NCBI GenBank assembly: GCA_048394785.1
Contig: DBFJGL010000056.1
Location: forward strand, 1 to 61,740
Direction of reading: 5' to 3'
From: Christensenellales bacterium
GTDB taxonomy: Bacteria; Bacillota; Clostridia; Christensenellales; CAG-917
Length of the DNA stretch: 61,740 bases
Below, piece after piece: positions 14,544 through 57,318 of this stretch. The position numbers and the translations under genes were made by a program. The notes below the pieces were generated by a model. The model was not told the DNA's origin. It saw nothing but the letters and a program-made list of their open reading frames with translations, and searched no databases. How positions within the stretch are numbered: the first letter of the stretch is position 1; each line of letters starts with the position of its first letter.

Positions 14544-14588
14544 TGGAGCTGATAACCGGACTTGAACCGGTGACCTCTTCCTTACCAA
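14544..14588 (-). pseudogene. orphan 3' half of a disrupted host tRNA-Thr(GGU): anticodon loop through CCA
   Basis: Minus strand reads TTGGTAA-GGAAG-AGGTC-ACCGG-TTCAAGT-CCGGT-TATCAGC-T-CCA. The 3' acceptor and anticodon-stem strands pair perfectly with the 5' half at 57382-57419. Confidence 0.85.
14580..14588. repeat. attL core (CCTTACCAA), direct repeat of 57380-57388
   Basis: This 9-bp string is the only sequence shared by the two junctions. It corresponds to the anticodon loop plus 2 nt of the severed tRNA. Confidence 0.7.
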
Positions 14589-14748: not shown

Positions 14749-15018
14749 ATAGCGATTTAGGCAGAAATAGAGCGTATTAGAGCGTTAAAATTCTGCGTTT
14801 CTTTCGTAATGTATAATTATTCATTTCTGTCACGTTGCCTACCCAAGGACAAATGCACGAATTTCTGCACGTTTATTAGAATATCGGTTAGAACAAGAGA
14901 GGTTAGAATGATTGATAACGATTTTTGATTATTCTGTCTTTAAGATTTCGGATACGTATTTCTTTGTTGCGGCGAGACAGTGATAAACCGTTAAAAGTTG
15001 ATTTTAAGAGTCGCAGTC

Positions 15019-15048
15019 TTGACATTTTCTGCTTTTTTATGCTATAAT
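15019..15048 (+). promoter_or_regulatory. near-consensus sigma-A promoter for the cargo operon
   Basis: TTGACA (15019-15024), an 18-nt spacer ending in TGC (extended -10), then TATAAT (15043-15048). It lies 36 nt upstream of the XRE gene. Confidence 0.65.
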
Positions 15049-15335: not shown

Positions 15336-17702
15336 ATGCGAAAATTACGTTTCTATGCAATCTTGTGCATTGCCGCGGCGATGTTTTTTGCAACGGCGTT
15401 CATTCCCGTCAATCAGAGTTTCGCCGCCGAGGCAACTCAACCGAGTATCGTAACGACATCGGAAGGACTGTCTCTGGCGTTGTCGAAAGCCAAATCAGGC
15501 GAAACAATCTACGTCGGGGATATCGACTTTGAAGTCAAAGGAACCAACACCAATCCCATCGAGCGCAAAACGGTGATCACGGGCGTGAGAATCGTAAATG
15601 GCAAGTCGGACGGAACGAAAGCTGTATTTACGGGCGGCAGTTTTAATCTGATCGGCGACAACCGTTCGGGCATTACCACGGAGTTCGTTTTTGAGGGAAT
15701 CCGTTTTGACGGCGGCATTGATACGTCGGTTCTTACCCATTCCGACTGGGAACTTCCGACAAACAGTCAAGGCGAAACTCTTTTGGATCAGCCGTCGAAA
15801 GCGCAATACGCAATACGCATGGAAAGAAACGTCAAGGCGACTTTCCGAAACTGTGATTTTGAAAATTATATGTTTAATGCGGGCGGAGCAATCCGTGCCG
15901 ATTATTCCGACGGCTCCAACAGTCTGGAACTAAACCTATACGACTGCAATTTTGCAAAAAACGCGGCCTTTACCTGCGGCGGTGCTGTCGCCCTTTGGGG
16001 TGCCTACGGCACGGGCAACAACGTTTCCTTTCTTGCCGACGGCTGTCGGTTTGAGGGTAACTTTTGCGGTGGTGCTACTAAAATAACGGAAGACGGCGCT
16101 TCGAATTATATCCAAACGTCCTATGGCGGGGCGATATACTCCAAACACGTATCCGTTGAACTGCGCAATACCGTTTTAATCGGCAACACGGCCAATCACG
16201 AATATGCGAACGCGCCTGCCCTGTCGGGCAACTACGGCAAAACCGACGTAAGTTCGGGCGGCGGCATATACTGTTACTTTGCGCCGCTGACGATGAAAAA
16301 CTGCGTTGTGACGGAAAATAAGGCGTCTACCGGCGGCGGCATAAAGCTCAAACTGTCCTCGGCGGTTATCGACGGTTGCGTCGTTGCGAACAATCGCGCA
16401 CAAACTTTGGCGGAAAAGCCGAATTCCAAAAACGGTCTTAGCAGCGCTATGGGATTGGGCGGAGGAATTTATATCAATTACGACAACAGCGTGTATGCTA
16501 TAAAACTTATGAATACCAGCATATACGGCAATTATGCGCAGAACGCTTTGGGCGCAATAGGCGTACCTACTAACCCGAAAGAAAGGCTCGATTTGCGCTT
16601 CTTGTTTTGCACAGTGGAAAACAACACTTGCGAAACGGCACGGGAGGAGTATGAACACACCGATAATAACAACTGGTTATGGTACTGTCAGCCCGGTGAC
16701 TTCTGGGAACTTGACTGTGTAAAAAAGGTGGGTTGTGCGATTGCCGATGCGGAATACCCGAGGGAGCCGGTCGTACAAACTCCGTCCGAAGACAACGGTT
16801 ACAACAGCTTTTACGTTGCCGCCGTTTTTGATTCGACGGAGCCTAAGCACCTGTCTCCTACCGATTTTTCCGTGCCGACGGAATACGTGTCTACCGTTTG
16901 CGGCGGCGAATTTTCCCGTATCGAGGGTGCGTTTTACGTCGGCGACAATTACCGCGAATCCTTGCCTGTCGAACTGGACGGGAACGGAGTTGCCGTTGAA
17001 TACGACTTGACTTACGGCACAGCCGAATTGCCTGTTCCCGTGCGCAACGGATATATTTTCGAAGGCTGGGTAACGGAAAAGGGAGAAACCGTCGATCCCG
17101 ACCAAACGCTTTTTGCCTACGGCGAAACCCTTACGTTGTACGCAAAATGGACGGCGAGGCAGTTTCCCGTTCTCTTTATCGTGGGCGGAGCTGAGGAAAC
17201 GCGCACGCAAACCTACGACACGGCGTGGAATGTGCCGGATGCGCAAAAGAACGGTTACAAATTTTTAGGCTGGTACAATGCGGAAAGCGGCGGCGAGAAA
17301 GTCGATACGGCGTCCGCGTTTGCCTATGACGAAACGCTGACGCTTTACGCGCGATTCGAGAAGAAATCTCCGTTACTCGCGGTTGTGCTGTCGGTGAGCG
17401 GCGCGATAATCTTGATAGCAGGTAGCACTGTTGCCGTTGCATTGATTATGCGTCGCAAAAAAGCGGCGGTCGCAGCAGGAGTAACGCAAGCGCCTGCACC
17501 ACCTGACAAACCGACGCCGGATACAAGCGCGCTGTCCCCCAGAGAGCGGGAAGTATTGGATTTGCTGCTGTCCGGCAAGCGTCGGAGCGAGATAAGCGAA
17601 ATCCTCTATGTGGGAGAGGAAACGGTAAAATCCCACATTAAAAATATTTACGCGAAACTGGAAGTAAAAAGTATTCACGAGCTTTTTTCAAAGTTTAATT
17701 AA
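15336..17702 (+). CDS. single-pass membrane protein: signal peptide, extracellular PMP-like beta-helix, two Listeria-Bacteroides repeats, TM helix, cytoplasmic LuxR/GerE HTH
   Basis: - Signal peptide ends ...NQSFAAEA.
- Repeated GGAI/GGGIY motifs indicate a beta-helix.
- GYIFEGW...LTLYAKW and GYKFLGW...LTLYARF are Flg_new-type repeats.
- TM helix LLAVVLSVSGAIILIAGSTVAVALIM is followed by RRKK.
- C-terminus LSPREREVLDLLLSGKRRSEISEILYVGEETVKSHIKNIYAKLEV is a LuxR-type HTH. Confidence 0.8.
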   Translation: MRKLRFYAILCIAAAMFFATAFIPVNQSFAAEATQPSIVTTSEGLSLALSKAKSGETIYVGDIDFEVKGTNTNPIERKTVITGVRIVNGKSDGTKAVFTGGSFNLIGDNRSGITTEFVFEGIRFDGGIDTSVLTHSDWELPTNSQGETLLDQPSKAQYAIRMERNVKATFRNCDFENYMFNAGGAIRADYSDGSNSLELNLYDCNFAKNAAFTCGGAVALWGAYGTGNNVSFLADGCRFEGNFCGGATKITEDGASNYIQTSYGGAIYSKHVSVELRNTVLIGNTANHEYANAPALSGNYGKTDVSSGGGIYCYFAPLTMKNCVVTENKASTGGGIKLKLSSAVIDGCVVANNRAQTLAEKPNSKNGLSSAMGLGGGIYINYDNSVYAIKLMNTSIYGNYAQNALGAIGVPTNPKERLDLRFLFCTVENNTCETAREEYEHTDNNNWLWYCQPGDFWELDCVKKVGCAIADAEYPREPVVQTPSEDNGYNSFYVAAVFDSTEPKHLSPTDFSVPTEYVSTVCGGEFSRIEGAFYVGDNYRESLPVELDGNGVAVEYDLTYGTAELPVPVRNGYIFEGWVTEKGETVDPDQTLFAYGETLTLYAKWTARQFPVLFIVGGAEETRTQTYDTAWNVPDAQKNGYKFLGWYNAESGGEKVDTASAFAYDETLTLYARFEKKSPLLAVVLSVSGAIILIAGSTVAVALIMRRKKAAVAAGVTQAPAPPDKPTPDTSALSPREREVLDLLLSGKRRSEISEILYVGEETVKSHIKNIYAKLEVKSIHELFSKFN

Positions 17703-17728: not shown

Positions 17729-17756
17729 AGCCCGACCGGCACGGTCGGGCTTTTAT
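17729..17756 (+). terminator. rho-independent terminator
   Basis: Stem AGCCCGACC (17729-17737) / GGTCGGGCT (17743-17751), followed by TTTT. Confidence 0.7.
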
Positions 17757-17919
17757 TATGCCTTGCGCCTAAAATAAAGATGTCTTGTTCAAAATCCCCC
17801 GAAATATCCCCCTGATGGGGGATGTACAAAAGCAAACCGTACCATTAAAATATAAATAACAAATGCAAGTATTCAGTCCAAAGTACAGTTGCAAAATAGA
17901 AACCAACCGGAGGTAAAAA

Positions 17920-19800
17920 ATGAAAGGAAAAATCAGACTGGTCGGCATATTGCTGCTTACCGTAATTCTCGCGGTAACACTTGCCGCCTGCAACGGCGGC
18001 AATGACGACAATGGCAACACTCCCAAAGCCCCTACGCAAAGCGATTGGTCGGCGGTGGGAATCGACGGCGGCTTTTCCGCCGAGGTTAAAGGCAATCTCG
18101 TCACTAATTTGGCGGTTGAAGGCGAAATTCAGATGAAGTGGACGGATTCGGACGAAACCAGCCTCGACAACACCATTGCTTGGTTGAAATCCAAGGGTTT
18201 TTCGTCCTACGGCGGCGCAACCGCGACAAAGGAGTCGTTGCAGGACGGCGCATTGCTATCATACACGGCGGAAAAATCGGTTTCCGCAGTCGCGCAATCG
18301 GCAAAAGCCGTTGCTTTCGCCGCCGCGGCAAGCGCGGGAAATACCGTCGTGGCGGAAACGCTTTACGTCGCGCGCGACGTTTCGCTTATGGGTATGAGCT
18401 ACAAGGCGGGCGAGCTGTATCTGTCAGTAGCTCCCGAAAATAGCGGAAGCACGCCTGCGCCCGGTCCGAGTACGGAATGGCCGGCGCAGACCATCGCTTC
18501 GATCATAGGCGACGGCGTACCCGTTTATACCGGCGCGGCGTCTTCTGTTACAACACAGTCTAACACGCTTGTTAAGCCCACCGTTACGGTCACGGTAGCG
18601 GGTGCAACCAACGCCGATTACGTCGCATACAGGACGGCGTTAACACAGTCGGGATTCAGCGACACGCCCGACGGGTTTGTCAAAACGAAAACCAACGGCG
18701 ACGTTATCACGGTAATTGTAACGGATATGACGACAAACGGCGGTATGATTTTGATAACCGTGACGCTGGAAAAGAACAGCGGAGCGCTTACAGAATATCC
18801 GTCCAACAGACTTACGGCGTTTAACGGCGCCAATCTCCCCGCGTATTCGGGTGGCACGAGTTTTGACTGCGAAGATATTCTGGCGACGTATTCCGCGGCA
18901 ATGAAAACGGGAATAGAGCAAGAAATTGCGAAATTGGAAGCCTTGGGCGCGAACCTTACCGCCGAACAGCGAACTCAGCTTGCGGAATATAAGGAAAAAC
19001 TTAAACTTATCGACAATATGCGTGCGTTTACGGTCACCGTCTACGGCACGACGGACGGCGAACGCAGCGCGTTTTGCGAAAGACTGACCGCAAACGAGTT
19101 TACCCTTAACGGCGGAACGTACGTCAAGGACTTTTCCAATCCGAATCAATATCACGCGCAGGTTGACGTAGGCGACGTAGAAAACGGAAAACTTTTACTT
19201 ACTCTTATCCGTATGCCGGCGGGGCTTTTGGACGACGAAGGCGGCGATCCCGTAAATCCGCCCGTAACGGACGAGTTGACCTTTGCGGATTTGCCGACGA
19301 ATATAAAAATAACTTTTGAGTATTTGGTCAACGGAACAAAGTTTACAGAAAGCACGGCTACTAAAATCGGTGATAATTGGCTGATAGAAAGCGCTTCGTA
19401 CGGTACTACAGTAAAAAGTTATCTTAAAAAGTCGGGCAACGTGTGGACGGAATACGCCGAGGCAAGCGGCGCGTGGACGGCGGGCAGCTCCTATACGGCG
19501 CTTTCCGACCACGACGTTTTGGACGTGCTGACGTTTATTTTTAATAACGACGTAACCGGCTTTACCAAAGGACAGCAAATAACCATTGCGGGGCAAGCTT
19601 GCGACGTCTATACGAAAACGAACGACAGCTTAGCCTCATACGGAATAACGACCGTCGATACCTTGTACGTAAACGCGGACGGCTTTGTTTTGTACAACGA
19701 CCATTCGAGCAATCAACAAGGACAAACCACAACACAAACCTATCAAATCACCTTGTGGGACACGACCGTTACGTCTTTCGGTGATATAACGCTGCCGTAA
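17920..19800 (+). CDS. lipoprotein of unknown function (626 aa)
   Basis: Signal peptide with lipobox LAAC-NGG. The C-terminal ~170 aa end in WDTTVTSFGDITLP and are paralogous to modules in the 20697-21890 product. Confidence 0.75.
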   Translation: MKGKIRLVGILLLTVILAVTLAACNGGNDDNGNTPKAPTQSDWSAVGIDGGFSAEVKGNLVTNLAVEGEIQMKWTDSDETSLDNTIAWLKSKGFSSYGGATATKESLQDGALLSYTAEKSVSAVAQSAKAVAFAAAASAGNTVVAETLYVARDVSLMGMSYKAGELYLSVAPENSGSTPAPGPSTEWPAQTIASIIGDGVPVYTGAASSVTTQSNTLVKPTVTVTVAGATNADYVAYRTALTQSGFSDTPDGFVKTKTNGDVITVIVTDMTTNGGMILITVTLEKNSGALTEYPSNRLTAFNGANLPAYSGGTSFDCEDILATYSAAMKTGIEQEIAKLEALGANLTAEQRTQLAEYKEKLKLIDNMRAFTVTVYGTTDGERSAFCERLTANEFTLNGGTYVKDFSNPNQYHAQVDVGDVENGKLLLTLIRMPAGLLDDEGGDPVNPPVTDELTFADLPTNIKITFEYLVNGTKFTESTATKIGDNWLIESASYGTTVKSYLKKSGNVWTEYAEASGAWTAGSSYTALSDHDVLDVLTFIFNNDVTGFTKGQQITIAGQACDVYTKTNDSLASYGITTVDTLYVNADGFVLYNDHSSNQQGQTTTQTYQITLWDTTVTSFGDITLP

Positions 19801-19814
19801 TCGAGGAGAAAATT

Positions 19815-20678
19815 ATGGGAATATTCAATAAAATCACCAAGGGTATCACGCGCGGAGTAGGAAACGCGGTGTCAAACGCAGTACAGCGAAAAACTACGGA
19901 AGCCCTGACGCCGCAGGTCGACAAACTGGCGGATAAAATCGTCAAGACAAATCCGCAATCCTCGACGAACGAAGGGCAAGCCGCGCAAAGCTCCGACCTT
20001 GCTGCGGCAACGGCGAGGCTCGCGGGCGCATACTCGGGCGCCGTGCAAAACTACGCAACCGAGGCGGCAAAGAATATCAAGGTCTGCCCCTCCTGCGGCA
20101 AGCCGACGAGCGCGGATAAAAAATTTTGTCCCGAGTGCGGCGCGGAAATGCCCCAAACCACGCTCGCGGACTGTGCGGTATGTCCCGCTTGCGGCAAGCA
20201 AAACGGCATAGGCGAAAAATTCTGCTCGGACTGCGGTACGAAGCTGCCCGCAGCAATCGAAGAAGATCGCCAAAGCGCGCAAGCCGACGAGAATACTATG
20301 GCGCGGTGGGACGAGTTTTTGTCCGCATATCCCAAATGGAATTGCGGCGGCAGCGGCTACAATCTCGAACGCTTCGACGGCGACCGCTATATGTTCGCCG
20401 CACGGTTTGCCGATTTCGACGCAGCAAAGCGGGCGGTAGAGCAATACCGCGCAAGTCTGCGGCAAAGCGGCTTTGCGCCCGCGGGGCAGTACCCGAGCGA
20501 GGAGCATCTTTACAAAAAGACGGACGGCGGTTGTTTTCACGTAGATACCGAGCATTGCTTCGAGGGCGATTCCGATTGCCCTACCGTCTATTTCAATACG
20601 GAAGAACCATACGGCGGCTTCGATTACAAAAAAGAAGAACCGAAAAAGAAAAAAGGCTTTTTCGATTTATTCGGTTAA
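19815..20678 (+). CDS. cytoplasmic double zinc-ribbon protein (287 aa)
   Basis: CPSCGK..x..FCPECGA and CPACGK..x..FCSDCGT form two consecutive zinc ribbons. No TM helix. The C-terminal domain is of unknown function. Confidence 0.7.
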   Translation: MGIFNKITKGITRGVGNAVSNAVQRKTTEALTPQVDKLADKIVKTNPQSSTNEGQAAQSSDLAAATARLAGAYSGAVQNYATEAAKNIKVCPSCGKPTSADKKFCPECGAEMPQTTLADCAVCPACGKQNGIGEKFCSDCGTKLPAAIEEDRQSAQADENTMARWDEFLSAYPKWNCGGSGYNLERFDGDRYMFAARFADFDAAKRAVEQYRASLRQSGFAPAGQYPSEEHLYKKTDGGCFHVDTEHCFEGDSDCPTVYFNTEEPYGGFDYKKEEPKKKKGFFDLFG

Positions 20679-20696
20679 TATAAAGGAGAAATTTCT

Positions 20697-21890
20697 ATGA
20701 AAAAGACGTTTATTATCATTTTAGCAGTGCTGACTATGTTTTCGATATGCTTACTTTCCGCTTGTGATTCGTCGGGCAACGAAAACGGAAACGGCGGCAG
20801 CGGCGGAGGCGGCGGGGGCGGCGGAGAAACGACTACCGGGTACACTCTCCCTACCAACGTAAAGGTCGTTTATGTCGATAACGATACAATCGGCTTCGAC
20901 GAAACTGTTACGGCTTACAAAATCGGGGATACATACGCGGCGTCCACGGTTACCGCCAACGGTACTGAGAGCGTATATTTCAAAAAGCAGGGAGATACTT
21001 GGAAATATTATAAAAACTCCGGTTGGGGCTGGGAGATCGAAGAAGAATCCTGCAACCGCAAGTCCGCCGAAATACTTACCTTCGGCTATATAGTTATAGA
21101 CTCATTGAAGTCATCGGCGGAAAAAGCGGGCGCCGAACAGATTGCGGGTATATCTACCGAAAAATATTCCTCTCAATACTCCACTTACGAGGAGCATTGG
21201 TGGGTAGCCGACGGGCTTATTATTAAGTATCACTACCAATCCAACGCCGTAACGCCCCATATTCAATTACGGGAAATCAGGTCATGGGATACCTCGGTAA
21301 CGGCAATGGGCAATGATGCGGACGTTCCCGGACTTCTTGCGGGAGAAGAAGGCACCCCGCCTACAAAGGACGCGGTATTGCCTCAGAACGTAAAAGCCGA
21401 ATGTACCACCGTTTCGGGCTCTACCACAACGAATAAACTTACCGTAAAAATCGGCAACGATTATTATTACAAAACAACAAGAACGTATGTAGACAGCACA
21501 ACGCAGGAAACGAATACCAGCGTAGACGAACGTTTTTACCGTTACAATTCCGCAGAGGAAAATTGGACGTCTTATTGGAAGAGATCGGACGGGAGCTGGG
21601 CGAGTTCGGAAGATCCTATCGAATATAAAGAGGACATTGAAAGCAATGCGTTCAATTCGTATCTAACCGACGGTTACGAAGGCGAGTTTGTAGAAACCGT
21701 TACGATTGCCGACGTGAGCGTACGGCATTTCAAAAAGGAGTCCCAAATGGACTTCGGAAGGGGCGATTATTGGGTAACCGACGGCGGATTGGTGCTAAAA
21801 TACGAATCGGGTTCGGGAACGTACGTATACACGTATTCGGTTTGGGACACTTCGGTCACAAGTTTTGCCGGTATCAACCTGCCGGAATAA
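20697..21890 (+). CDS. lipoprotein with two tandem copies of the WDTSVT-terminated module (397 aa)
   Basis: Lipobox LSAC-DSS, then a Gly-rich linker. The two modules end in SWDTSVTAMG and VWDTSVTSFAGINLPE. Confidence 0.75.
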   Translation: MKKTFIIILAVLTMFSICLLSACDSSGNENGNGGSGGGGGGGGETTTGYTLPTNVKVVYVDNDTIGFDETVTAYKIGDTYAASTVTANGTESVYFKKQGDTWKYYKNSGWGWEIEEESCNRKSAEILTFGYIVIDSLKSSAEKAGAEQIAGISTEKYSSQYSTYEEHWWVADGLIIKYHYQSNAVTPHIQLREIRSWDTSVTAMGNDADVPGLLAGEEGTPPTKDAVLPQNVKAECTTVSGSTTTNKLTVKIGNDYYYKTTRTYVDSTTQETNTSVDERFYRYNSAEENWTSYWKRSDGSWASSEDPIEYKEDIESNAFNSYLTDGYEGEFVETVTIADVSVRHFKKESQMDFGRGDYWVTDGGLVLKYESGSGTYVYTYSVWDTSVTSFAGINLPE

Positions 21891-21901
21891 GGAGATAACA
21901 A

Positions 21902-22606
21902 ATGAAAAACAAAATTTTATCAAATTTATCGTACGTGTTCTGCGCAGGACTGGGGTTATTGAATTTTATTCTGCTGGCAATCCCCTACGTCGCGTCCTTT
22001 TATAAATACGACTACGGCGAATGGGGCGGCAAAGGCTCGAACTCGGCGGGCATTTCCGGCTACAAGGTTATGAGCCTTTGGGAGGGCGGCTTCGGCGGCA
22101 TTATGAGCGCAATCTTCCAGATTTTTATTCTGATTTTAGGAATTGCACTGCTTGCCTACGGCGTTATGGGACTCTTAAAGGCATTCGGCGTGTTTGAAAA
22201 GTTCCCCGACAAACTCGGGAAATTCGAAACGAAGAAGCTCGGAGAATACGGACTGTTCGCTTATGCGGGACTGAACGTACTGCTTTTGATATTCCTGATT
22301 ATTTTGTGCGCAACCAATACGCGTAGCGAAAGCGAAATGGGTATTTCCGGTTCCGCCGGAATACGGTTTAGCGCAGGAATTTTTATTACTCTGATTTTTG
22401 CCGTAGGCTCCGTCGTCGCAATGAAATTTCTGCAAAAGAAGTTTCCCGCAAACGCGGATAACGGGCCGCAAATTTCTTATCTATGCGAAAATTGCGGCAA
22501 AAAGGCAAAAAAGACGGTCAAATTCTGTCCCGAATGCGGAGGAAAGGTCGTCGAAAAACAAACGGACTTACAGGAGGATACTACTCCGCCCGATAGTGAA
22601 AATTAA
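21902..22606 (+). CDS. four-TM membrane protein with C-terminal zinc ribbon (234 aa)
   Basis: Four hydrophobic helices, followed by CENCGKK..x..FCPECGG. Confidence 0.7.
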   Translation: MKNKILSNLSYVFCAGLGLLNFILLAIPYVASFYKYDYGEWGGKGSNSAGISGYKVMSLWEGGFGGIMSAIFQIFILILGIALLAYGVMGLLKAFGVFEKFPDKLGKFETKKLGEYGLFAYAGLNVLLLIFLIILCATNTRSESEMGISGSAGIRFSAGIFITLIFAVGSVVAMKFLQKKFPANADNGPQISYLCENCGKKAKKTVKFCPECGGKVVEKQTDLQEDTTPPDSEN

Positions 22607-22623
22607 AACGGAGGGAAATGAAA

Positions 22624-24042
22624 ATGAAATCGGTTTTTTCAAAAACAAAGGCGACGGCAATCGTATTGGCTCTGCTACTTGCTTTTTCCGTCTGCGCGTT
22701 TGCCGCGTGCAACCCAAGCGGTAACGAAGGCAGCGGAAACGGTAACGGAAATGGTAACGGGGGCGGAAACGGCGGCACGACTACGGACAAAACCGTCGTA
22801 CAGTTGATCGACGAGGCGCAGGTAATTTTCAACAAGGCGGGCAAAGCCCTTTCGAACGCGACGACGGGACTTGCGGGTAATTTGACCGAAAGCCAGCCAC
22901 AAGTGCAAACGCTGAGCGCAAAGTCAGCGCCGCGCATCGCTTTGCTGTCCGACGAAAAACCGAGCGACGGCGACGATATTCCTTCGGCACCCACCTTAGA
23001 CGACCTTGAAGGCTACGTACTGCTACGCAACCTGCAAGTAGCCATTAAATCGGTTTTCGGCGAAGTAGAGTACTACACGGCGGAAGATTTCGGCGGAAAC
23101 GAAAACGCACCGGGCATAGGCAAAGTCAAAAGCGAAGGGACGTACACACGGCTGGCACGCACCTTCAAAGAATTAGACGCTTTGCTGTCTGAAATGGGAG
23201 ATGGCGCAAAAGTGACGATTGAAAACAAGGACGTTCCCACGGCGCCGAGTTACGCCTTTAAGCGGGACGGAAATTACGTGGTTTCCGCTCCGGTACTACG
23301 TTGGCAAATCAACAACGAAGTTGACTCCGAAGGCAAACCGATTCTTTCCGAAGAAGAACAAATAGAGGTGGTCGCGCGCGGAGAAACGACGTATATAGCG
23401 CAGGGCAATACCCTCAACGTCACGGGTCCGAAGTACGTTCAAGAGGGCGACAAACAGTTGCCCGACAAACTTAAAGACGCGGGCGACGGCATCGACCCGC
23501 TCTATCGGGCAGACAACCTCAGCACTTTCCGCTCCTTTACGGTAAACGACAACGTCGCTTCGTCCCCTGCGCTGGAAGTCGTTTCTGCCGACGACGACGT
23601 GTACATGCGCTTTTACGGCATTGATATGACGTCTCTCCAAATGGGCTCTGAGGTTGATACCAACGAATTTTATCTCGACTTAAGCGTAAGATGGTTTGAA
23701 TACACGGAAAGAATGACTTTCGAAAGCCCCCAAGGACTGGAAAACAACTGGAATTTCCCCAACGAAGTTTACGGCGTGGCAAAATTCGCCCCCGACGGCA
23801 CCAGCGGTATGGTAAAACTTTTCCGCAATTACAGTCACGACGCGGGCGGGCCGAAGGACGCGGCGGGCAATCCGCAGTACGAACGCGGTACCTATCCTTT
23901 GCCCGAAAAATGGCTTACCTCGTTCAACGCCGAAACGGCTCTCGATATTTCCGGCTTGGAGGGCAACTGGCTGCAACACAAGCAGCGGTATCTGTGCACC
24001 TTCAACTTCACGGGGCTGCCTGCCGCGGAAGAAAAGAAATAA
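22624..24042 (+). CDS. lipoprotein of unknown function (472 aa)
   Basis: Lipobox FAAC-NPSG followed by a GNGNGNG linker. ATG 22624 is 8 nt from GGAGGG. The track start at 22618 is only 2 nt from the RBS. Confidence 0.7.
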   Translation: MKSVFSKTKATAIVLALLLAFSVCAFAACNPSGNEGSGNGNGNGNGGGNGGTTTDKTVVQLIDEAQVIFNKAGKALSNATTGLAGNLTESQPQVQTLSAKSAPRIALLSDEKPSDGDDIPSAPTLDDLEGYVLLRNLQVAIKSVFGEVEYYTAEDFGGNENAPGIGKVKSEGTYTRLARTFKELDALLSEMGDGAKVTIENKDVPTAPSYAFKRDGNYVVSAPVLRWQINNEVDSEGKPILSEEEQIEVVARGETTYIAQGNTLNVTGPKYVQEGDKQLPDKLKDAGDGIDPLYRADNLSTFRSFTVNDNVASSPALEVVSADDDVYMRFYGIDMTSLQMGSEVDTNEFYLDLSVRWFEYTERMTFESPQGLENNWNFPNEVYGVAKFAPDGTSGMVKLFRNYSHDAGGPKDAAGNPQYERGTYPLPEKWLTSFNAETALDISGLEGNWLQHKQRYLCTFNFTGLPAAEEKK

Positions 24043-24056
24043 GGCAAAAGCCGTAA

Positions 24057-24083
24057 GCGCCGCGTCTTTTTCGCGGCGTTTTC
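24057..24083 (+). terminator. rho-independent terminator
   Basis: Stem CGCCGCG (24058-24064) / CGCGGCG (24072-24078), followed by TTTT. Confidence 0.6.
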
Positions 24084-24212: not shown

Positions 24213-24869
24213 ATGAGTAAAACCAAAAAAAGTACGTTGTTTGTATTACTGCTCGCACTAATGCTTGCGGCGATTGCAGCGGTAAGCGTATCGGCGCTGC
24301 CCGCACAAACGGCGCACGCGGCAATCAATCAGTACGGAGTCATCGAGGCGGGCACGACGACCTTGAACGGTAACTTAAATCAGGGAAAGACGCTTGCTTG
24401 TAGTGTAACCGCGACGCTTAACGGAAACGGCTATACGATTTCACGCAATCTTGCAACAGATTATCCCGTAATTACCGTACGTAGCGGCGCCGTTTTGACC
24501 ATCAACAACGCAACCATCGACGGAGGATATACCTTTACGCAGAGCGGCGACTATTATATAAATACTTCCACCGCCTACCTTTCAAGCGCTCCTCTTATTT
24601 TGGTCAAGGACGGCGGAAGGCTTATTTTGAACAACTGCACCGTGCAAAACAACGTATCGTCGGAAAACGGCGGAGGGATTTATATCGAAAAGGACGGTGC
24701 GGTGGATATGTTCGATTCCACCGTGCAAAAGTGTCGGGTAACCGGCTCTTCTTCCGGCGGGGGTATTTACAATTTGGGTATCCTCGCCATGGTGGGCGGA
24801 AACGTTCGATACAACCAAGCCGGCGGCGCCGGCATTGTATATAAACAAAAAAGAAGGCTATACCGATAA
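24213..24869 (+). CDS. N-terminal fragment (signal peptide plus first beta-helix turns) of the giant surface protein
   Basis: The signal peptide ends ...AQTAHAAI. Beta-helix motifs NGGGIYIE and SGGGIYN are present. The frame ends 35 nt after the next ORF opens in the +1 frame. Confidence 0.6.
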   Translation: MSKTKKSTLFVLLLALMLAAIAAVSVSALPAQTAHAAINQYGVIEAGTTTLNGNLNQGKTLACSVTATLNGNGYTISRNLATDYPVITVRSGAVLTINNATIDGGYTFTQSGDYYINTSTAYLSSAPLILVKDGGRLILNNCTVQNNVSSENGGGIYIEKDGAVDMFDSTVQKCRVTGSSSGGGIYNLGILAMVGGNVRYNQAGGAGIVYKQKRRLYR

Positions 24870-27800
24870 AACCGTCAACGTAACGCGCAATCTCGCCGAT
24901 AGCGGTGCGGGACTGGCAATAATAGACGGCGACGCATGGATTTACGGCACTCAGTCGGCGCCTGTCAAAGTAGAGTCCAACGTGGCGTGTCAAGGGTACA
25001 ATTACATTGCTAATCCGGACGGCACCGGAGGCGGAGTATACGTCGGATTATACGCAAAAGCGCACATATATAACTTTGTTAGCATTCAATACAATTCCGC
25101 CGGCAACGGAGGCGGTATTTACACGGTCGGCAGTACTTGGCTCGGACGGGAAGGCACGACGTCCACCCGCATGGTGGTTGCCTACAACAGCGCGACAAAT
25201 TACGGCGGAGGCATTTGGTCGGGTGGCGGCGCCGGTACTTGGCTGGGAAAAATTACTGTTTTTGAAAATACCGCGCAATACGGCGGCGGAGCGTATATCC
25301 ACAGCGAAACGACTGCGGAAAAACCCTTTGCCGTTACGTCCACGTCGCTCGTAAGCTCTAACACAGCGAGCACGGCGGGCGGTGGAATTTACGCCGACGG
25401 CGTACTGACCTTGGAATACAAGCCGTATATCGGCCTTAACAAGGTAGGCTCGGCAAACAGCAACGTCTATTTGTCGGTAACAGACGGTAAAAACAGCAAA
25501 ATAAATATTGTCCAAAAACAGACGGACAACAAAGATTCGGGTACGCAGACGGTGCCTATCGGATTGAGTTCCGATATGACTTCCGCAACGAAAATCGTCA
25601 CGACAAACTATACGGTTACGAATTCGCTTGCTCTGTCGGACGTGTTTACAACCGACAATACCGATTATTACGGGCTGTCGCTTTCGGGCGGCGAAGTGCA
25701 AATGAACCGCTACGTCAAGGTCACATATTCGCCTTACAGTTGCACGGGAAGCGCAAAAACCGTCAAGGTCGGCTACAATCAGGCCACCCTCGTTTACAGC
25801 GCCGCACAAGCCGGTTTTTCCAAGACGGGTTACAGCCTTTCGGGGTGGAGCCTTGTAGCCGGCAATTCGGTTGCAACCTACGGCTTGACGCACCAGCCCG
25901 CATTTAAGGACGATATCACCCTGTATCCCGTTTGGTCGGTAAACAGATACACGCTTACCTATGACGGCAACGGCAACACCGGCGGAGGTATGAGTACAAG
26001 CGAGTTTACTTACGGTCAGACGGCCAATCTTCGCTTGAACGGCTTTACGAAGACGGGCTACAATTTTTTAGGCTGGTCGTTCGACCAAAATGCGACGACT
26101 CCGACCTATTTAGACGGAGCCTCTTTTACCTATAATTACACCTCGGACAAAACGCTGTACGCCGTATGGAAACCATTATATTCTTACACCGTAAAGCACT
26201 ATTTGCAAAACATAGCGGACGATGAGTATACCATTGACGTTACGGAAACCCTTTCCGGCACGGGTACTACGCAGGCGGTAGCGAAAGACTACGCCGGTTT
26301 TACCGCGCAAGCGTTCAGTCAAGCGACCATTGCCGCAGACGGCAGTACGGTGGTGGAAATTTTCTACAATCGCAACAGTTACACCCTTACCTTCAACGCC
26401 AAGGGCGGCAATATTTCGAGCGATACGCTTACCGCGAAATACGGTTCGCCGATTACCCTTCCCGTTGCAACGAGAAACGCCTATACCTTTGTCGGTTGGA
26501 GCGAAACGGACGGCGGCAGCACGGCGGTAAATTACACGACTATGCCGGCGGTAAACAAAACCCTTTATGCTGTTTGGAAAAACAGGGCGCTTGTAAGCAT
26601 TTCCGTTCCCGCCGAGTATCTAACCCAAACCTATTTCGTAAACGACGCTTTGAAAGCGTTTCAAATTAACTTAGTTTACGACAACGGCGATACGGAAAGC
26701 GTTGACGTAACTTCCGCTATGGTTTCGGGCTTTTCCACGGCAGCCGTGGCGTCAAACCAAACGGCGACAATATCTTACGGCGGCAAAACCGCAACCTTTA
26801 CTTATACCGTAACGCAGGGCTACGCCTACAAGGTTCTTCATCATTTTGAAGATATTGACGGCGAAGGGTACGGAACGGATACCGCTACCGTAAGCGAAAC
26901 TCTTTACGGCACGGGAACTACGCAGGCGGTGGCAAAAAAATACGACGGCTATACCGCACCCACTACCATAGAGCAGAAGGAGATTAACGCGGACGGAACT
27001 ACGCAAGTCGATATTTATTACACCCGAAATTCTTACACCGTCACCTTCGACGCGGGCGGCGGTGAATTTCCCGCAAACGCAACGACGACGCTTTCCGCAA
27101 AATACGGCGCAAACGTTTCGGTAGCGGGCATTACCGCGCCCGCAAAACTCGGCTTTGTGTTTACCGGTTGGAACACTTCGGCGGAAGGCACCGGCACGCC
27201 GGTTGACAAAAGCGGAAATTATACCGTGACTGCGGAAACAAACCAAACCCTTTACGCCGTTTATGAAGCCAAAGCGGTGACGAGACTGACCGGCAAGTCA
27301 GACAGCAAAAATGAGTGGTACGTGGGCGAGGCAATGGGCGAATATTACTTTACTGCGGAATACAACGACGGAACGACGGAAGATATATCCGTCGTTGCGA
27401 CAGGCGTAGAAGTTAAAAATTTCGACACTTCCACCGCTACCGGTACGGGAGAAAAAAGAACGGCGACCATTAAATACGGCGGTCAGCAGTACAGCTTCAA
27501 CTACACCGTAGTTGTCAGAACGTACAGCGTGACCTACTACGCAAACGGCGCGTCGGGTGAACTGCCCATAAATACGCCGATGCCAAGCGGTATGAGTTTA
27601 ACTGTCCAAGACGGCGATTCCCTTACCAAAACGGGCTATACCTTCACAGGCTGGCTGTACAGCGGCGACGGCAACGTGTACGAGTCGAACGATACGATAA
27701 CGATGCCCGCCCAAGACGTCACCTTTACCGCACAGTGGAGTTTGAAGTCGCCCGACCTTGATTTTGGCAATATTCTCGGAGGCGCCTCTCCGGATTTCAC

Positions 27801-30800
27801 CTATGACTTCTCATACGACGGCGAGGCTCATCAGGTAACGGTAACCGCCACACACGAATTGGTAGGGCAAGTTGATTATACCTACGCTTGGTACCGTTTG
27901 AAGGCGGGCGGGACTCCGATTCCCTCTATGTATCGTACGGAAGATATGCTAAATAGCAACTGCGATCAGGTAGGCGAAACGGATACCTATGGCTTTACCG
28001 AGATTGCCCACAGCGGAACCCATTACTGTCTGGTCAAGGCGACGTACGGCAGCGATACGAGTATCGCCGTGGTACAGATTTACGTGACCGTTTCCAAAGG
28101 CGAGCAAGCGGAGTTAACCTTCTCGCAAACCGAAATAACCTACGCCGGCGAGAATATCTATTTAAGCCTATACGTTTCGGGCGGTTCGGGCGACGGAGCG
28201 ATTACCTTCCCTTATTGCACCTTTGGCAATGACGTTTCCGGCAGTTTGAATTCTGCAACCGGTGTAATCAGCAATATAACAAAGGTAGGCGGAACTATAA
28301 AAGTTACGGTACGAAAAGCCGCAAGTAGCGACGGAAACTACAAGGCGACGGAAAAAGAGTTTACGCTCACCATAAATAAGGGCGTTCAAAATATTGTAAT
28401 AGGCGATATTCAAAGCCCCACGTTCGGCAATGCTTACGACCTGACGGCTACGGGCAACGTCGGCACGGTAGCCTTTGAAACTATCACGGGAGGCACGGCT
28501 ACGGGCAAAATAGAAAACGGAAAACTTTCCGTCAGCGACCGTGGAACGGACGGTACTATTACCGTAAAAGCCACCGCCGCCGAAACCGACCTATGGGCGC
28601 AAGGCACGGCGCAAAAAACCTTTACCTTTGCCAAGGCTTCCTACGACTCCGCACCCGAATTTTCGGGCAACATTCCGGCGCAAACCTATACCCTATGCGT
28701 AGGGCGCGCGCTTTCGGAAATAACGCTTCCTACTTATTGGTCGTGGCAGGACGGGCAAAGTTTGCCCAACCAAACCGGAACTTACGACCGGATGGCTATT
28801 TTCACCCCCGCAAGCCCCGACAACTACGAGGGAACCGAAGCGACTATTTCAATAACCGTCGCCGCCCATAACTCCGAAGGCGCGGCAACGAGCAATAACG
28901 ACGGCACGCACTCTCACACTTGCTCGGTTTGTTTTGAGATAATCACCGAAAACTGCACCTTTGGCGACTGGGTGACTACCGTTCAGCCGGGCGTAAATCA
29001 AGAAGGCAGTAAATACCGCGATTGTTCCGTGTGCGGTTACCGCGACACGCAAGTCATACCCGCAACGCATACCTGCGTGTACGATGCCGAGTTCACGGTA
29101 GATATTGCGCCTACCTGCACGACGGCGGGTGAAAAATCCCGACATTGCACGACGGCAGGTTGCGATGAGCGCGTCGGTATTACCGTAATCCCCGCCCTCG
29201 GTCACTCTTGGGGCGATTGGATTGTAACCACCCCCGCCACTTGCACAACGGACGGCGTAGAAACGAGGACTTGCGCCCACGATAGTAGTCATACCGAAAC
29301 GAGGGCTATTACTGCAATCGGTCACTCTTGGGGCGATTGGACGGTCAAAAAGGCTCCAACCGCACAAACGACGGGCGAACTTGAAAGAATTTGCGCCAAC
29401 GATTCCTCGCATACCGATAGTTTTGTATTGCCCGCGCTGAACAATAGCGACTACGTTTACAGCGTTGTGACCGCACCCGGCTGCGAAACTACGGGAACAG
29501 GCAAATACTCTTACACGAAAGATAATAAAACCTTCGATTTTACCGTTACTCTTGCTGTTGCGGGGCACACCTTAACGCCTCATGTGGCAAAAGCGGCGAC
29601 CTGCACCGAAGACGGAAATACCGAATATTGGACTTGCTCCGTTTGCGGAAAATATTTCAGCAATAGTGCGGGCACGAACGAAACGACGTTGAACGCCGTC
29701 AAAATTTCGGCAATAGGTCACTCTTGGGGAGAATGGATTGTGACCACCCCCGCTACTTGTACGGAAAACGGCGTAGAAACGAGAACTTGCACCCACGACA
29801 GTAATCATACGGAAACGAGGACTATTACTGCCAAAGGTCACGAGTGGGGCGGTTGGACTTCTAACAACAACGGCACGCACACCCACGCTTGCATGTACGA
29901 CGGCAGTCACACCGAAACGGAAAACTGCACATATGAGGATAGCGTAGTTGCCCCAACCTGTACGACAAAGGGCTATACGCGCCACACCTGCACCGTTTGC
30001 GGTTATCATTACGACGACACGCCTACGGACGAAATTGCTCATACCTTAACGGCACACGCCGCCGTTTCGCCCACGCATATTACGGCGGGCAATATCGCTT
30101 ATTGGACTTGTTCTGTTTGTAAAAAGTATTTTTCGGACGTAAACGGCGAAACGGAAATCAGCCTGAACGACACCGTACTGCAGGCTACCGGACACAGCCA
30201 TTCTTCCGAATGGAAAAGCGACGAGAGCGGACATTGGCACGAGTGCAGTTGCGGAGATAAGGCAGACGTGTCGGCGCATACCCCCGGGGCGGCGGCAACC
30301 GAAACCACGCCACAAACCTGTACGACGTGCGGATACGTAATTACGCCCGCTACCGGACACGCAACGCATACGCCCGATACTTCCAAGTGGCATTCCGACG
30401 GCACGAACCATTGGCACAAGTGCACCGGCTGTGAGGAAAAACTTGATGTTGCCCAACATAGCGGAGGCACGGCGGACTGCGAGCACAAGGCGGTTTGCGA
30501 AATTTGCGGCGCCGAATACGGCGAGCTTGCCGCGCACAGCTACGGCGAATGGACTCATTACAACGACACGCAGCACAAGCGGGTTTGCTCGGTTAATGCA
30601 GACCACGTCGAATACGTCGACCACGCTTGGAACGACGGAGTAATTACCACCGCGCCTACCCATACCGCGGCGGGCGTAAAAACCTATACCTGCGCGGATT
30701 GCGGACACACCAAAGCGGAAAGCATCCCCGCTACTGCCGAGCACTTTTACAATTTGGAAATTGCGGAGGCAAGGTTTTTGAAATCCGCCGCCACTTGTAC

Positions 30801-31542
30801 GCAAAAAGCGGTTTATTACAAGAGCTGCGCCTGCGGCGAACGCGGAACGGCAACCTTCGAGTACGGCGGTTATGCTGCGCACACATTGACCGCGCACGAG
30901 GCCGTAGCAGCCACCTGCACCCAAAACGGCAATATCGCTTATTGGAGTTGCTCGGTGTGTAATAAGTATTTCAGCGATAGCACGGGCGAAACCGAAATAA
31001 CGCAGGCGCAAACGGTAACAGCGGCGGGGCATAATTATGTGTTTACAAGGACGGTTGCGCCTAATCTCGAAGCGCAGACGGACGGTTACGACCTGTGGAC
31101 GTGCACCCGCGATGAAAGCCATACCGAACGGCGCAATATCGTGGAATGGGAAACATTGATTGCCGATAAGGTGACCGTCATGGTGTCGGGCGGCACGATA
31201 CAAGGCCAAAGCGGCTCGTCCATAATCGTCAATAAAAACGGAAACGTCACGGTTGTGGCAGACGAAATCGAAGGCAAAACCTTTGTCGGTTGGCGAAACG
31301 CAAACGGAGATATTGTCAGCGAAAACGCTACCTACACTTTCAGAGCAAGCGCGGATATGACGCTTACCGCCGTGTACGAGGACGTCACGTCCAAACCTAA
31401 GGGACTTTCAGGCGGCGCAATCGCGGGCATAGCGGTCGGAGGCGTGGCTATTGCAGGATTTGGTGGATTTGCAATATTCTGGTTTGCGGTCAAGAAAAAA
31501 TCTTTTGCCGATTTACTTGCAGCGGTCAAACGCAAAAAATAA
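24835..31542 (+). CDS. giant surface protein body (2235 aa): PMP-like beta-helix, Listeria-Bacteroides repeats, Ig-like domains, Cys/His-rich modules, C-terminal TM anchor
   Basis: No signal peptide of its own; the track start is a TTG. Domain evidence:
- GGGVY/GGGIY/GGGIW/GGGAY beta-helix repeats
- at least 6 repeats of the GY.F.GW...LYAVW type
- about 740 aa of CxxC/His modules
- TM helix IAGIAVGGVAIAGFGGFAIFWFAV followed by KKKSF. Confidence 0.75.
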   Translation: MYINKKEGYTDKTVNVTRNLADSGAGLAIIDGDAWIYGTQSAPVKVESNVACQGYNYIANPDGTGGGVYVGLYAKAHIYNFVSIQYNSAGNGGGIYTVGSTWLGREGTTSTRMVVAYNSATNYGGGIWSGGGAGTWLGKITVFENTAQYGGGAYIHSETTAEKPFAVTSTSLVSSNTASTAGGGIYADGVLTLEYKPYIGLNKVGSANSNVYLSVTDGKNSKINIVQKQTDNKDSGTQTVPIGLSSDMTSATKIVTTNYTVTNSLALSDVFTTDNTDYYGLSLSGGEVQMNRYVKVTYSPYSCTGSAKTVKVGYNQATLVYSAAQAGFSKTGYSLSGWSLVAGNSVATYGLTHQPAFKDDITLYPVWSVNRYTLTYDGNGNTGGGMSTSEFTYGQTANLRLNGFTKTGYNFLGWSFDQNATTPTYLDGASFTYNYTSDKTLYAVWKPLYSYTVKHYLQNIADDEYTIDVTETLSGTGTTQAVAKDYAGFTAQAFSQATIAADGSTVVEIFYNRNSYTLTFNAKGGNISSDTLTAKYGSPITLPVATRNAYTFVGWSETDGGSTAVNYTTMPAVNKTLYAVWKNRALVSISVPAEYLTQTYFVNDALKAFQINLVYDNGDTESVDVTSAMVSGFSTAAVASNQTATISYGGKTATFTYTVTQGYAYKVLHHFEDIDGEGYGTDTATVSETLYGTGTTQAVAKKYDGYTAPTTIEQKEINADGTTQVDIYYTRNSYTVTFDAGGGEFPANATTTLSAKYGANVSVAGITAPAKLGFVFTGWNTSAEGTGTPVDKSGNYTVTAETNQTLYAVYEAKAVTRLTGKSDSKNEWYVGEAMGEYYFTAEYNDGTTEDISVVATGVEVKNFDTSTATGTGEKRTATIKYGGQQYSFNYTVVVRTYSVTYYANGASGELPINTPMPSGMSLTVQDGDSLTKTGYTFTGWLYSGDGNVYESNDTITMPAQDVTFTAQWSLKSPDLDFGNILGGASPDFTYDFSYDGEAHQVTVTATHELVGQVDYTYAWYRLKAGGTPIPSMYRTEDMLNSNCDQVGETDTYGFTEIAHSGTHYCLVKATYGSDTSIAVVQIYVTVSKGEQAELTFSQTEITYAGENIYLSLYVSGGSGDGAITFPYCTFGNDVSGSLNSATGVISNITKVGGTIKVTVRKAASSDGNYKATEKEFTLTINKGVQNIVIGDIQSPTFGNAYDLTATGNVGTVAFETITGGTATGKIENGKLSVSDRGTDGTITVKATAAETDLWAQGTAQKTFTFAKASYDSAPEFSGNIPAQTYTLCVGRALSEITLPTYWSWQDGQSLPNQTGTYDRMAIFTPASPDNYEGTEATISITVAAHNSEGAATSNNDGTHSHTCSVCFEIITENCTFGDWVTTVQPGVNQEGSKYRDCSVCGYRDTQVIPATHTCVYDAEFTVDIAPTCTTAGEKSRHCTTAGCDERVGITVIPALGHSWGDWIVTTPATCTTDGVETRTCAHDSSHTETRAITAIGHSWGDWTVKKAPTAQTTGELERICANDSSHTDSFVLPALNNSDYVYSVVTAPGCETTGTGKYSYTKDNKTFDFTVTLAVAGHTLTPHVAKAATCTEDGNTEYWTCSVCGKYFSNSAGTNETTLNAVKISAIGHSWGEWIVTTPATCTENGVETRTCTHDSNHTETRTITAKGHEWGGWTSNNNGTHTHACMYDGSHTETENCTYEDSVVAPTCTTKGYTRHTCTVCGYHYDDTPTDEIAHTLTAHAAVSPTHITAGNIAYWTCSVCKKYFSDVNGETEISLNDTVLQATGHSHSSEWKSDESGHWHECSCGDKADVSAHTPGAAATETTPQTCTTCGYVITPATGHATHTPDTSKWHSDGTNHWHKCTGCEEKLDVAQHSGGTADCEHKAVCEICGAEYGELAAHSYGEWTHYNDTQHKRVCSVNADHVEYVDHAWNDGVITTAPTHTAAGVKTYTCADCGHTKAESIPATAEHFYNLEIAEARFLKSAATCTQKAVYYKSCACGERGTATFEYGGYAAHTLTAHEAVAATCTQNGNIAYWSCSVCNKYFSDSTGETEITQAQTVTAAGHNYVFTRTVAPNLEAQTDGYDLWTCTRDESHTERRNIVEWETLIADKVTVMVSGGTIQGQSGSSIIVNKNGNVTVVADEIEGKTFVGWRNANGDIVSENATYTFRASADMTLTAVYEDVTSKPKGLSGGAIAGIAVGGVAIAGFGGFAIFWFAVKKKSFADLLAAVKRKK

Positions 31543-55281: not shown

Positions 55282-55544
55282 GAATGTACCGCGACGAAAC
55301 GATGAACATTGAAGCGCTTATTACAGCCGAAGTAAAGCGTTTGTCCGAAAAATACGGCAAATCCTATCTCGACTGCGAAGAACTGGTTGAAATGACCGGA
55401 CTGGGGCGCGATAATGTCCGCGCCCTTATGGGCAGCGCAAATTTTCCCGTAACCTGCGTAGGCAATCGCAAAGTTGTCAGTATCCTTGCTTTTGTCACTT
55501 GGCAGATGCGCGGTTTTGACAAGGGAGGTAACTATGCCGCGTAA
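55272..55544 (+). CDS. excisionase-type HTH DNA-binding protein
   Basis: 90 aa. LDCEELVEMTGLGRDNVRALMGSANFPV is Xis/MerR-like. It overlaps the integrase start. Confidence 0.6.
   Translation: MLMRMYRDETMNIEALITAEVKRLSEKYGKSYLDCEELVEMTGLGRDNVRALMGSANFPVTCVGNRKVVSILAFVTWQMRGFDKGGNYAA

Positions 55545-57242: not shown

Positions 57243-57318
<76 letters not shown>

Follow-up and report, generated by a model that had tools for sequence, protein, structure and literature searches.

The 61,740-nt contig DBFJGL010000056.1 of a Christensenellales bacterium (assembly GCA_048394785.1; the whole stretch is referred to as the window) carries at positions 15336-17702 a gene for a 788-aa protein in which an adhesin-like beta-helix ectodomain, a single transmembrane (TM) helix and a C-terminal LuxR/GerE-type helix-turn-helix (HTH) domain are joined in one polypeptide. 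We find that this protein, referred to as the regulator, fits the class of transmembrane one-component regulators, since GerE and a TM helix stand in one chain and the phosphorelay modules HisKA, HATPase_c, and Response_reg are absent from it at E ≤ 1 in Pfam and NCBIfam. We hold it rather likely that it acts as a type I single-pass one-component regulator, working from the membrane on the adjacent operon.

The gene is read from the forward strand (ATG at 15336, stop codon at 17700-17702) in one unbroken frame, and the five-part anatomy that a sequence-only reading of the window had proposed for it is borne out by Pfam, hydropathy, AlphaFold2, and Foldseek (Table 1). Hydropathy reveals only two hydrophobic segments, residues 4-27 (ending ...NQSFA/AE) and residues 678-706, the latter being the highest peak of the protein (2.33) and followed by RRKK. 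Signal peptide and topology were judged by hydropathy and flanking-residue heuristics, and the earlier proposal of an outside N-terminus and an inside C-terminus is consistent with the signal-like N-terminus, the single TM helix and the basic residues behind it, all of which recur in the family. Structure prediction, which had been put forward as a check, was done with AlphaFold2 on an alignment of 15 sequences and gives a confident right-handed beta-helix at residues ~40-430 (predicted local distance difference test, pLDDT, mostly 80-95), beta-domains at residues 553-676, a helix spanning 679-706, disorder from 707 to 734 (pLDDT <50; 5 Pro in the 28 residues of the linker), and four C-terminal helices at 735-745, 750-757, 761-774, and 780-787.

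The HTH has a GerE (PF00196) match at residues 732-784 scoring 57.3 bits against a cutoff of 23.5 in Pfam, concordant results in NCBIfam, and a gap-free alignment to Bacillus subtilis GerE (1fse, E = 6.5e-8) that includes the TVKxHI recognition helix. Foldseek places it with the NarL-DNA complex 1je8, GerE 1fse, and StyR 1yio (TMt 0.73 to 0.82, root mean square deviation 0.7 to 1.3 Å). The regulator thus shares the four-helix HTH and the TVK recognition helix with the NarL/GerE/LuxR regulators, which differ from it in being soluble and in being controlled by phosphorylation or ligand-binding domains. The two stretches of Flg_new (PF09479, Listeria-Bacteroides repeat; E = 3.9e-17 in Pfam) form spacer domains that match the InlB B-repeat 2y5p (TMt 0.83). 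With respect to the beta-helix, Chlamydial Pmp proteins (PF02415) are built from repeated GGA(I,L,V) and FxxN motifs that form a beta-helix (PMC11166332), and the regulator contains three GGA[ILV], three GGGI, and two FxxN motifs. It gives no Chlam_PMP (PF02415) match in Pfam even at E ≤ 1, and it lacks the C-terminal autotransporter beta-barrel of Chlamydial Pmp proteins, ending instead in the TM helix and GerE domain. We therefore consider the PMP label for the ectodomain soft though reasonable.

This architecture recurs widely. A word-indexed search returned three close relatives (87 to 98% identity) and about 15 full-length relatives at 32 to 37% identity with identical Pfam content, and a one-genome-per-species scan found 58 loci with the regulator layout, all in metagenome-assembled genomes of uncultured gut Clostridia (Eubacteriales, Christensenellaceae, Ca. 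Scatosoma, Acutalibacteraceae, Saccharofermentans, Lachnospiraceae, and Oscillospiraceae), with several genomes carrying two paralogues. An exhaustive profile search yielded at least 37 family clusters at 50% identity (lengths of 656 to 885 aa), a lower bound drawn from the top 150 profile matches, which are crowded by giant Flg_new-repeat proteins. In all 37 representatives a single internal TM helix with K/R behind it lies 110 to 130 aa before the C-terminus; an N-terminal hydrophobic segment is found in 30 of them and a strict HTH sequence motif, 45 to 70 aa past the TM helix, in at least 29. GerE is matched in 36/37, Chlam_PMP in 25/37, and Beta_helix in 7/37. In the family alignment, signal sequence, beta-helix repeats, TM helix, basic anchor, and HTH are common to every member, with small residues at -3 and -1 of the signal-like segment, while the linker differs in length and sequence between subfamilies. 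The Flg_new pair is missing from one subfamily, indicating that it is dispensable as a spacer. A homologue search with the C-terminal part only returned just generic NarL/FixJ HTH proteins and no other architectures. Many of the family contigs (loci L001-L058) are very short and end within or beside the regulator gene, which, together with the paralogue pairs, suggests that assemblies break where surface-protein sequence is repeated or variable.

The recurrence also bears on whether the gene is real. The sequence-only reading had named a fusion of two genes by sequencing error as a finding that would overturn it, and the window does hold one disrupted gene, the giant surface-protein gene with its 35-bp deletion described below. 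That an assembly or sequencing artifact has joined a surface-protein gene to a separate LuxR gene is nevertheless something we practically dismiss. The regulator frame is continuous and without frameshift, the close relatives are colinear with the window across the junction without indels, and the identical architecture is found in independent assemblies from many species and sources and is kept down to ~30% identity. Furthermore, the ratio of nonsynonymous to synonymous substitution rates (dN/dS) against two close relatives is 0.25 to 0.29, with purifying selection in every domain.

Domain-wise constraint is informative for another alternative, namely that the regulator is mainly a surface adhesin or glycan-processing enzyme whose HTH tail is vestigial or serves for minor feedback. 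The ectodomain does resemble thousands of Clostridia PMP/Flg_new surface proteins, and its fold resembles lyases and tailspikes, the Foldseek matches of the beta-helix to polysaccharide lyases, pectate lyases, and tailspikes being weak. No enzymatic or binding function could be assigned to the beta-helix from the whole-chain Foldseek search, as the matches are too weak. In both comparisons with the window gene, however, the beta-helix is the least constrained domain (dN/dS of 0.30 to 0.33) and GerE the most constrained (0 to 0.16), and GerE is retained, with a canonical recognition helix, in all but one of the family clusters. The regulator also lacks a wall-sorting signal, and its membrane-proximal ectodomain of ~650 aa is short for an adhesin. 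We consider the adhesin or enzyme explanation very improbable.

The sequence-only reading had set the protein against the membrane-bound regulators of the ToxR/CadC type, and the polarity is indeed reversed. ToxR, CadC, and TcpP are, as is predicted for the regulator, one-component membrane-tethered factors that sense outside, act inside, and bind DNA while anchored, but their N-terminus is a cytoplasmic winged helix (Trans_reg_C, of which Pfam finds no match in the regulator), their sensor is periplasmic and C-terminal, they are made without a signal peptide, and their DNA-binding fold is a different one. The accompanying view that such an architecture has not been described fails as far as topology is concerned. 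Among catalogued transmembrane regulators, GerE ranks third in frequency as a DNA-binding domain (4,943 proteins, 9.8%; PMC10269533 supplement), and SusR senses in the periplasm and carries its HTH at a cytoplasmic C-terminus (PMC3878776). BguR of Formosa agariphila is a genetically proven activator with GerE output, for which its authors regard SusR as the sole comparable case (bioRxiv 10.64898/2026.01.10.698779).

BguR and the regulator share a signal peptide and a large outside sensor (both predicted for the regulator), a single TM helix, a linker, a C-terminal GerE domain (PF00196), the absence of phosphorelay domains and, as a prediction for the regulator, control of a nearby gene cluster. 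They differ in sensor, which is a tandem beta-propeller plus Y_Y_Y in BguR (neither Y_Y_Y nor a beta-propeller is matched in the regulator by Pfam) and a PMP-type beta-helix plus Flg_new here. They also differ in setting: BguR belongs to a Gram-negative Bacteroidota polysaccharide utilization locus (SusC/D), whereas the regulator is found in Gram-positive-type Clostridia, with genes for lipoproteins, zinc-ribbon proteins, and surface proteins as neighbors. No XRE partner has been reported for BguR, whose sequence relationship to the regulator is limited to the GerE domain. SusR likewise has its sensor outside and its C-terminal HTH inside and activates adjacent operons on extracellular or periplasmic glycan, but its DNA-binding domain is reported to be unlike known families, its predicted sites are direct repeats 67 to 77 bp apart, and its family is described as unique to Bacteroidetes (PMC3878776). 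The regulator follows the domain order of SusR and BguR and departs from both in sensor domain and context, but a similar mode of action is plausible. In Eggerthella and Gordonibacter, also gut Gram-positives, membrane-bound regulators of the LuxR type combine a membrane sensor with a C-terminal LuxR-type HTH and act on adjacent genes in response to specific substrates (PMC11585353), but they have 10 to 12 TM helices and small aromatic substrates, in contrast to the one TM helix and ~650-aa folded ectodomain of the regulator. Our literature search found no description of a PMP-type beta-helix/Flg_new sensor in such a regulator, of its occurrence in Clostridia, of XRE or c1 partners (c1 being the small CxxC-rich protein described below), or of a clade-specific operator. 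The reverse-ToxR topology with C-terminal GerE is, in short, already described, and what appears undescribed is the beta-helix sensor, the Clostridia host, and the XRE partner.

A candidate target of the GerE domain lies just behind the regulator gene, where ATCCCCC repeats form a cluster that is the only one of its kind within the window and that overlaps the -35 position of a promoter-like site leading into the downstream operon (Table 1). The repeat cores are invariant in the relatives L061 and L062, with variable spacer bases, and every clade has a repeat cluster between the terminator and the next gene, made up of at least two direct copies followed by an inverted copy. The distance from the promoter-proximal repeat core to the -10 element is 22 to 24 nt in every clade tested (23 nt in the window), and the -35 hexamers at these promoters are weak, unlike that of the regulator's own consensus promoter, indicating that the repeat cluster takes the place of the -35 element. 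Short, C-rich repeats whose inverted pair overlaps the -35 position, as in the predicted operator, recall NarL heptamers (TACYYMT, arranged 7-2-7) and the position of the lux box. One motif common to the promoters at 15019, at 17823, and upstream of 24213 was searched for and not found.

The motif differs between clades, and its changes follow those of the GerE domain. The window and the type A1 relatives have different GerE recognition helices (TVKSHIKNIY versus TVKKNISSIY) and different motifs (ATCCCCC versus TACCCG), while the recognition helix GVSYSTVSRWERE of the small XRE-type protein encoded directly upstream of the regulator is identical in both. The TACCTAC motif, in turn, pairs with the GerE helix TVKD(N/Y)AGR whether the XRE partner is membrane anchored or soluble. 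In about five clades, this is suggestive of an operator motif that tracks the GerE helix and not the XRE helix. We infer that the GerE domain binds the repeats and controls the promoter behind them, probably as an activator. Two other products of the neighborhood were ruled out as repeat binders: c1 is absent from the window, L059, and L062, which keep the motif, and the gene of the double-zinc-ribbon protein DZR287 is absent from type A loci that keep it.

In the window, the stop codon of the XRE gene lies 3 nt ahead of the regulator ATG, and the two genes stand between a 12/12 consensus promoter and a strong terminator, which indicates that they are cotranscribed. The -10 region of this promoter is kept across relatives, with homology to L061 and L062 beginning at 14994. 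An XRE homologue is encoded directly upstream of the regulator in 31 related loci (57 to 72% identity), much more conserved among them than the regulator itself. In 14 further loci an XRE-HTH protein with C-terminal TM helices is divergently transcribed (e.g., type B L011:694-1083, minus strand) and would itself be a membrane-anchored HTH protein, to judge from its sequence; these loci have a downstream run of zinc-ribbon membrane proteins and a ~1,100-aa protein. Altogether, an XRE-family gene adjoins the regulator in ~45 loci. In 16 relatives a perfect 7-1-7 palindrome, TAATATGnCATATTA, covers the -10/+1 region of the XRE-regulator promoter, once per locus (e.g., L004:9749-9763 and L059:9761-9775), and is likely the XRE autoregulatory operator there. 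An Rfam scan of 13.5 to 18.5 kb gave no matches. PADLOC and PHROGs scans of the module gave generic HTH matches only, indicating that it is not a known defense system or phage module.

The near-constant adjacency of an XRE-family gene is also what speaks for a rival account of the repeat cluster, in which the XRE protein or an unlinked factor binds it, or it serves as an RNA or terminator element, and the GerE target lies elsewhere or is autoregulatory only. The proximal repeats of the type B and type C loci pair up as a hairpin that has T residues behind it. Against an XRE binder stand the identical XRE recognition helix at two different motifs and the unchanged motif across two XRE partner types; the constant spacing to the -10 element in all clades argues for a promoter element at the DNA level, and the window and the type A loci carry, ahead of the cluster, a canonical terminator distinct from it. 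We judge this account unlikely.

Several observations nevertheless weigh against GerE control of the downstream promoter in response to an outside signal. The covariation covers only some five clades and is not statistical evidence. The inverted repeat and T-run of the type B loci could be the regulator's own terminator. A site that overlaps the -35 element could equally mean repression. The palindrome TAATATGnCATATTA is not found in the window even with two mismatches, despite the identical XRE recognition helix. Lastly, the beta-helix-lyase matches are weak and generic, and the invariant residues of the family's ectodomain are mostly structural repeat positions, so that no ligand is indicated.

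The operon behind the predicted operator comprises, in order, a 626-aa lipoprotein, a 287-aa double-zinc-ribbon protein (DZR287, 19815-20678), a 397-aa lipoprotein, a 234-aa TM plus zinc-ribbon protein, and a 474-aa lipoprotein. The gene order is common to the window and L061, and DZR287 is kept downstream of the regulator in 12 to 13 loci. The 626-aa (17920-19800) and 397-aa (20697-21890) lipoproteins both end in ...WDT(T/S)VTSF(G/A).I.LP and both match one region of L004; they appear to share a C-terminal domain, for which there is no Pfam family. In 23 related loci, as in L061, the regulator gene is followed by c1, which encodes a small CxxC zinc-finger protein with a weak Prok-RING_2 match. 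This gene has no homologue in the window, because a ~290-bp deletion relative to L061 (junction 17885/17896, L061:3116-3418) removed it from both the window and L062.

The sequence-only reading had coupled the regulator to the giant surface protein encoded farther downstream as a sensor-effector pair, on the grounds of a common domain grammar. That ground is not supported, as BLAST similarity between the regulator ectodomain and the giant protein is confined to the generic Flg_new repeats (E = 3e-4), and a specific similarity between the two was rejected on this basis. The window has no copy of the operator motif upstream of the giant gene, and the 474-aa lipoprotein gene with a hairpin of 20-nt arms (24045-24091), an insertion relative to L061 (22581-24093), separates the giant gene from the upstream operon. 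The giant gene itself is broken near 24826, where a deletion has taken out 35 bp that the intact homologue in L061 retains; a frameshift by slippage at an A6 run was considered and rejected in favor of this deletion, and from its sequence the split gene is taken as either a pseudogene or an assembly error. What remains of the pairing comes from relatives, where the promoter predicted to be regulated leads into large surface-protein genes. In L059 the operator and promoter stand directly ahead of the gene for a 1,171-aa Big_2 protein, in L004 the gene run of the regulated promoter ends in a 1,226-aa Big_2 protein, and in L061, which is without the 474-aa lipoprotein gene, the giant gene follows ~100 nt past the operon, in the same run. 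Type B loci end in the ~1,100-aa protein, and in L060 an LRR/dockerin protein of 3,717 aa is encoded upstream. A loose link from the regulator to surface-protein genes is thus supported by gene order.

Table 1. Features of the regulator module and of the surrounding conjugative element, with positions in the window
Feature	Position	Strand	Evidence or content
Signal-peptide-like N-terminus (predicted)	15336..15425	+	aa 1-30: MRKLR, hydrophobic core, NQSFA/AE; hydropathy peak 4-27
Ectodomain, PMP-type right-handed beta-helix	15426..16970	+	aa ~31-545; AlphaFold2, GGA[ILV]/GGGI/FxxN motifs
Two Listeria-Bacteroides (Flg_new/InlB B-repeat) domains	16971..17366	+	aa 546-677; PF09479, Foldseek 2y5p
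Single TM helix, then RRKK	17367..17453	+	aa 678-706; hydropathy and model helix
Disordered Pro-rich linker, predicted cytoplasmic	17454..17528	+	aa 707-731; low pLDDT, Pro content
C-terminal LuxR/GerE HTH and stop codon	17529..17702	+	aa 732-788; PF00196, 1fse alignment, four-helix fold
Predicted GerE operator	17794..17823	+	ATCCCCC gaaat ATCCCCC tgat GGGGGAT; predicted from sequence
Promoter-like site of downstream operon	17823..17851	+	Weak -35 TGTACA, -10 TAAAAT (17846-17851); 9/12 consensus
Operator repeats, window/L061/L062			ATCCCCC gaaat ATCCCCC tgat GGGGGAT
Operator repeats, type A1			GTACCCG / TACCCG / GTACCCG aa CGGGTA
Operator repeats, type B relatives			TACCTACC copies and GTAGGTA
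Operator repeats, type C			TACCCTACC twice and GGTAGG
XRE-regulator operon promoter	15019..15048	+	TTGACA, 18 nt, TATAAT with TG extension; 12/12 consensus
Small XRE/Cro-type HTH protein, 82 aa	15084..15332	+	Pfam HTH_3, E = 6e-11
Intrinsic terminator of XRE-regulator operon	17729..17751	+	10-bp stem, 8 GC pairs, 3-nt loop, TTTTATT; kept in L061 and L062
Predicted regulated operon	17920..24042	+	Five open reading frames, 11 to 18 nt apart; Pfam DZR and Zn_Ribbon, lipobox-like N-termini
Giant PMP-like/Flg_new surface-protein gene, disrupted	24213..31542	+	218-aa fragment and 2235-aa open reading frame in overlapping frames; four Flg_new
Distal att repeat	14544..14588	-	45-nt copy of tRNA-Thr 3' end, 93% identical to 57243-57287, same orientation
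MobL relaxase	34248-35465		Within conjugative element
VirD4-type coupling protein	35452-37704		Within conjugative element
VirB4-like ATPase	44150-46729		Within conjugative element
Tyrosine integrase	55474..56985	+	Phage_integrase, E = 1.4e-26; proximal end of element
Intact tRNA-Thr	57243..57318	-	ARAGORN; proximal end of element

With respect to mechanism, we propose that Sec export would place the PMP-type beta-helix and the two InlB-type spacer domains outside the membrane, with the single helix spanning it and a flexible linker of ~25 residues tethering the GerE HTH on the cytoplasmic face. The regulator would be made from the strong promoter jointly with the small XRE repressor-type protein, which, speculatively, autoregulates their operon. 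Acting at the membrane as a dimer or a larger oligomer, the GerE domain would bind the operator repeats and, from the -35 position, control and most likely activate the adjacent lipoprotein/zinc-ribbon operon, to which relatives add the small CxxC protein and large surface proteins. An extracellular cue (glycan, wall polymer, or surface contact) might shift the oligomeric state of the ectodomain and hence DNA binding, although this step is speculative.

The same target could instead be reached by regulated proteolysis, in which the ectodomain would first be cleaved at site 1 or shed, cleavage within the membrane would then release a soluble GerE domain, and this would bind the repeats (cf. RsgI/RseA, Notch). 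The linker is just ~25 residues long and disordered, the TM helix includes Gly, Ser, and Pro residues, and the route is the one taken by single-pass anti-sigma factors of Clostridia and Bacilli (PMC10556640). The RsgI-type anti-sigma factors resemble the regulator in being single-pass Clostridia sensors with outside carbohydrate-binding or surface-type domains and control of surface or cellulosome genes, but they have an N-terminal cytoplasmic anti-sigma domain (opposite polarity) and rely on a separate sigma factor and proteolysis. No protease gene is conserved in any regulator neighborhood, however, and the juxtamembrane position holds Flg_new or nothing, with no SEAL-like or other autoproteolytic domain. 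SusR and BguR, of like topology, are moreover described as acting from the membrane. Release by proteolysis is in our view doubtful, and action of the intact regulator from the membrane is the reading that we prefer.

The regulator module is carried as the distal 18-kb cargo of a ~42.7-kb element inserted in tRNA-Thr (~14589-57242 of the window), which the integrase beside a tRNA gene, the att repeats, the relaxase, the coupling protein, and the VirB4-type ATPase identify as an integrative conjugative element (Table 1). The element also encodes an ArdC-like protein, two DNA methylases, and a primase-polymerase, and its host is a spore former (SpoIVA). In L062 the module, with homology from window position 14994, abuts housekeeping genes, and no conjugation genes lie within 10 kb of the regulator in distant relatives, indicating that the module is not intrinsically a function of such elements. 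Just inside both ends of the element we observe 22- to 24-nt repeats (CTGCAATTGTCTGCAATT...; 14728-14749 versus 57019-57040 and 57129-57152), which are possible arm-type sites for a recombinase. A low-GC stretch just ahead of the relaxase gene holds two neighboring genes (32503-32955 and 32990-33454) for small proteins of 150 and 154 aa with C-termini like sigma-70 region 4 or GerE. They recall the small regulators of Tn916-type elements and are probably the conjugative element's own regulators.

Up to now, only Bacteroidota (SusR and BguR) have provided functional proof of membrane one-component regulators that sense through an outer N-terminal domain and respond through GerE at the C-terminus, and the present family would extend this design to uncultured gut Clostridia with a wholly different, adhesin-like sensor. 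The predicted circuit is complete and comprises the strong promoter with the XRE and regulator genes behind it, the clade-specific operator at the -35 position, and the surface-protein operon. The operator/recognition-helix pairs would constitute a natural specificity code for GerE domains and could possibly provide orthogonal membrane sensors for synthetic biology. It is a further, if far-reaching and rather improbable, idea that we are dealing with a transferable "touch-and-respond" receptor of Gram-positive gut bacteria, whose adhesin-type beta-helix would engage a surface glycan or partner cell and, via ligand-driven clustering or force-dependent cleavage, switch on a surface-remodeling operon of lipoproteins, zinc-ribbon membrane proteins, and giant adhesins, with a private operator code per clade that would prevent cross-talk between paralogues, and with a conjugative element as its vehicle. 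At the least, the presence of the module as cargo of a conjugative element suggests that surface-remodeling programs travel between gut bacteria together with their own sensor.

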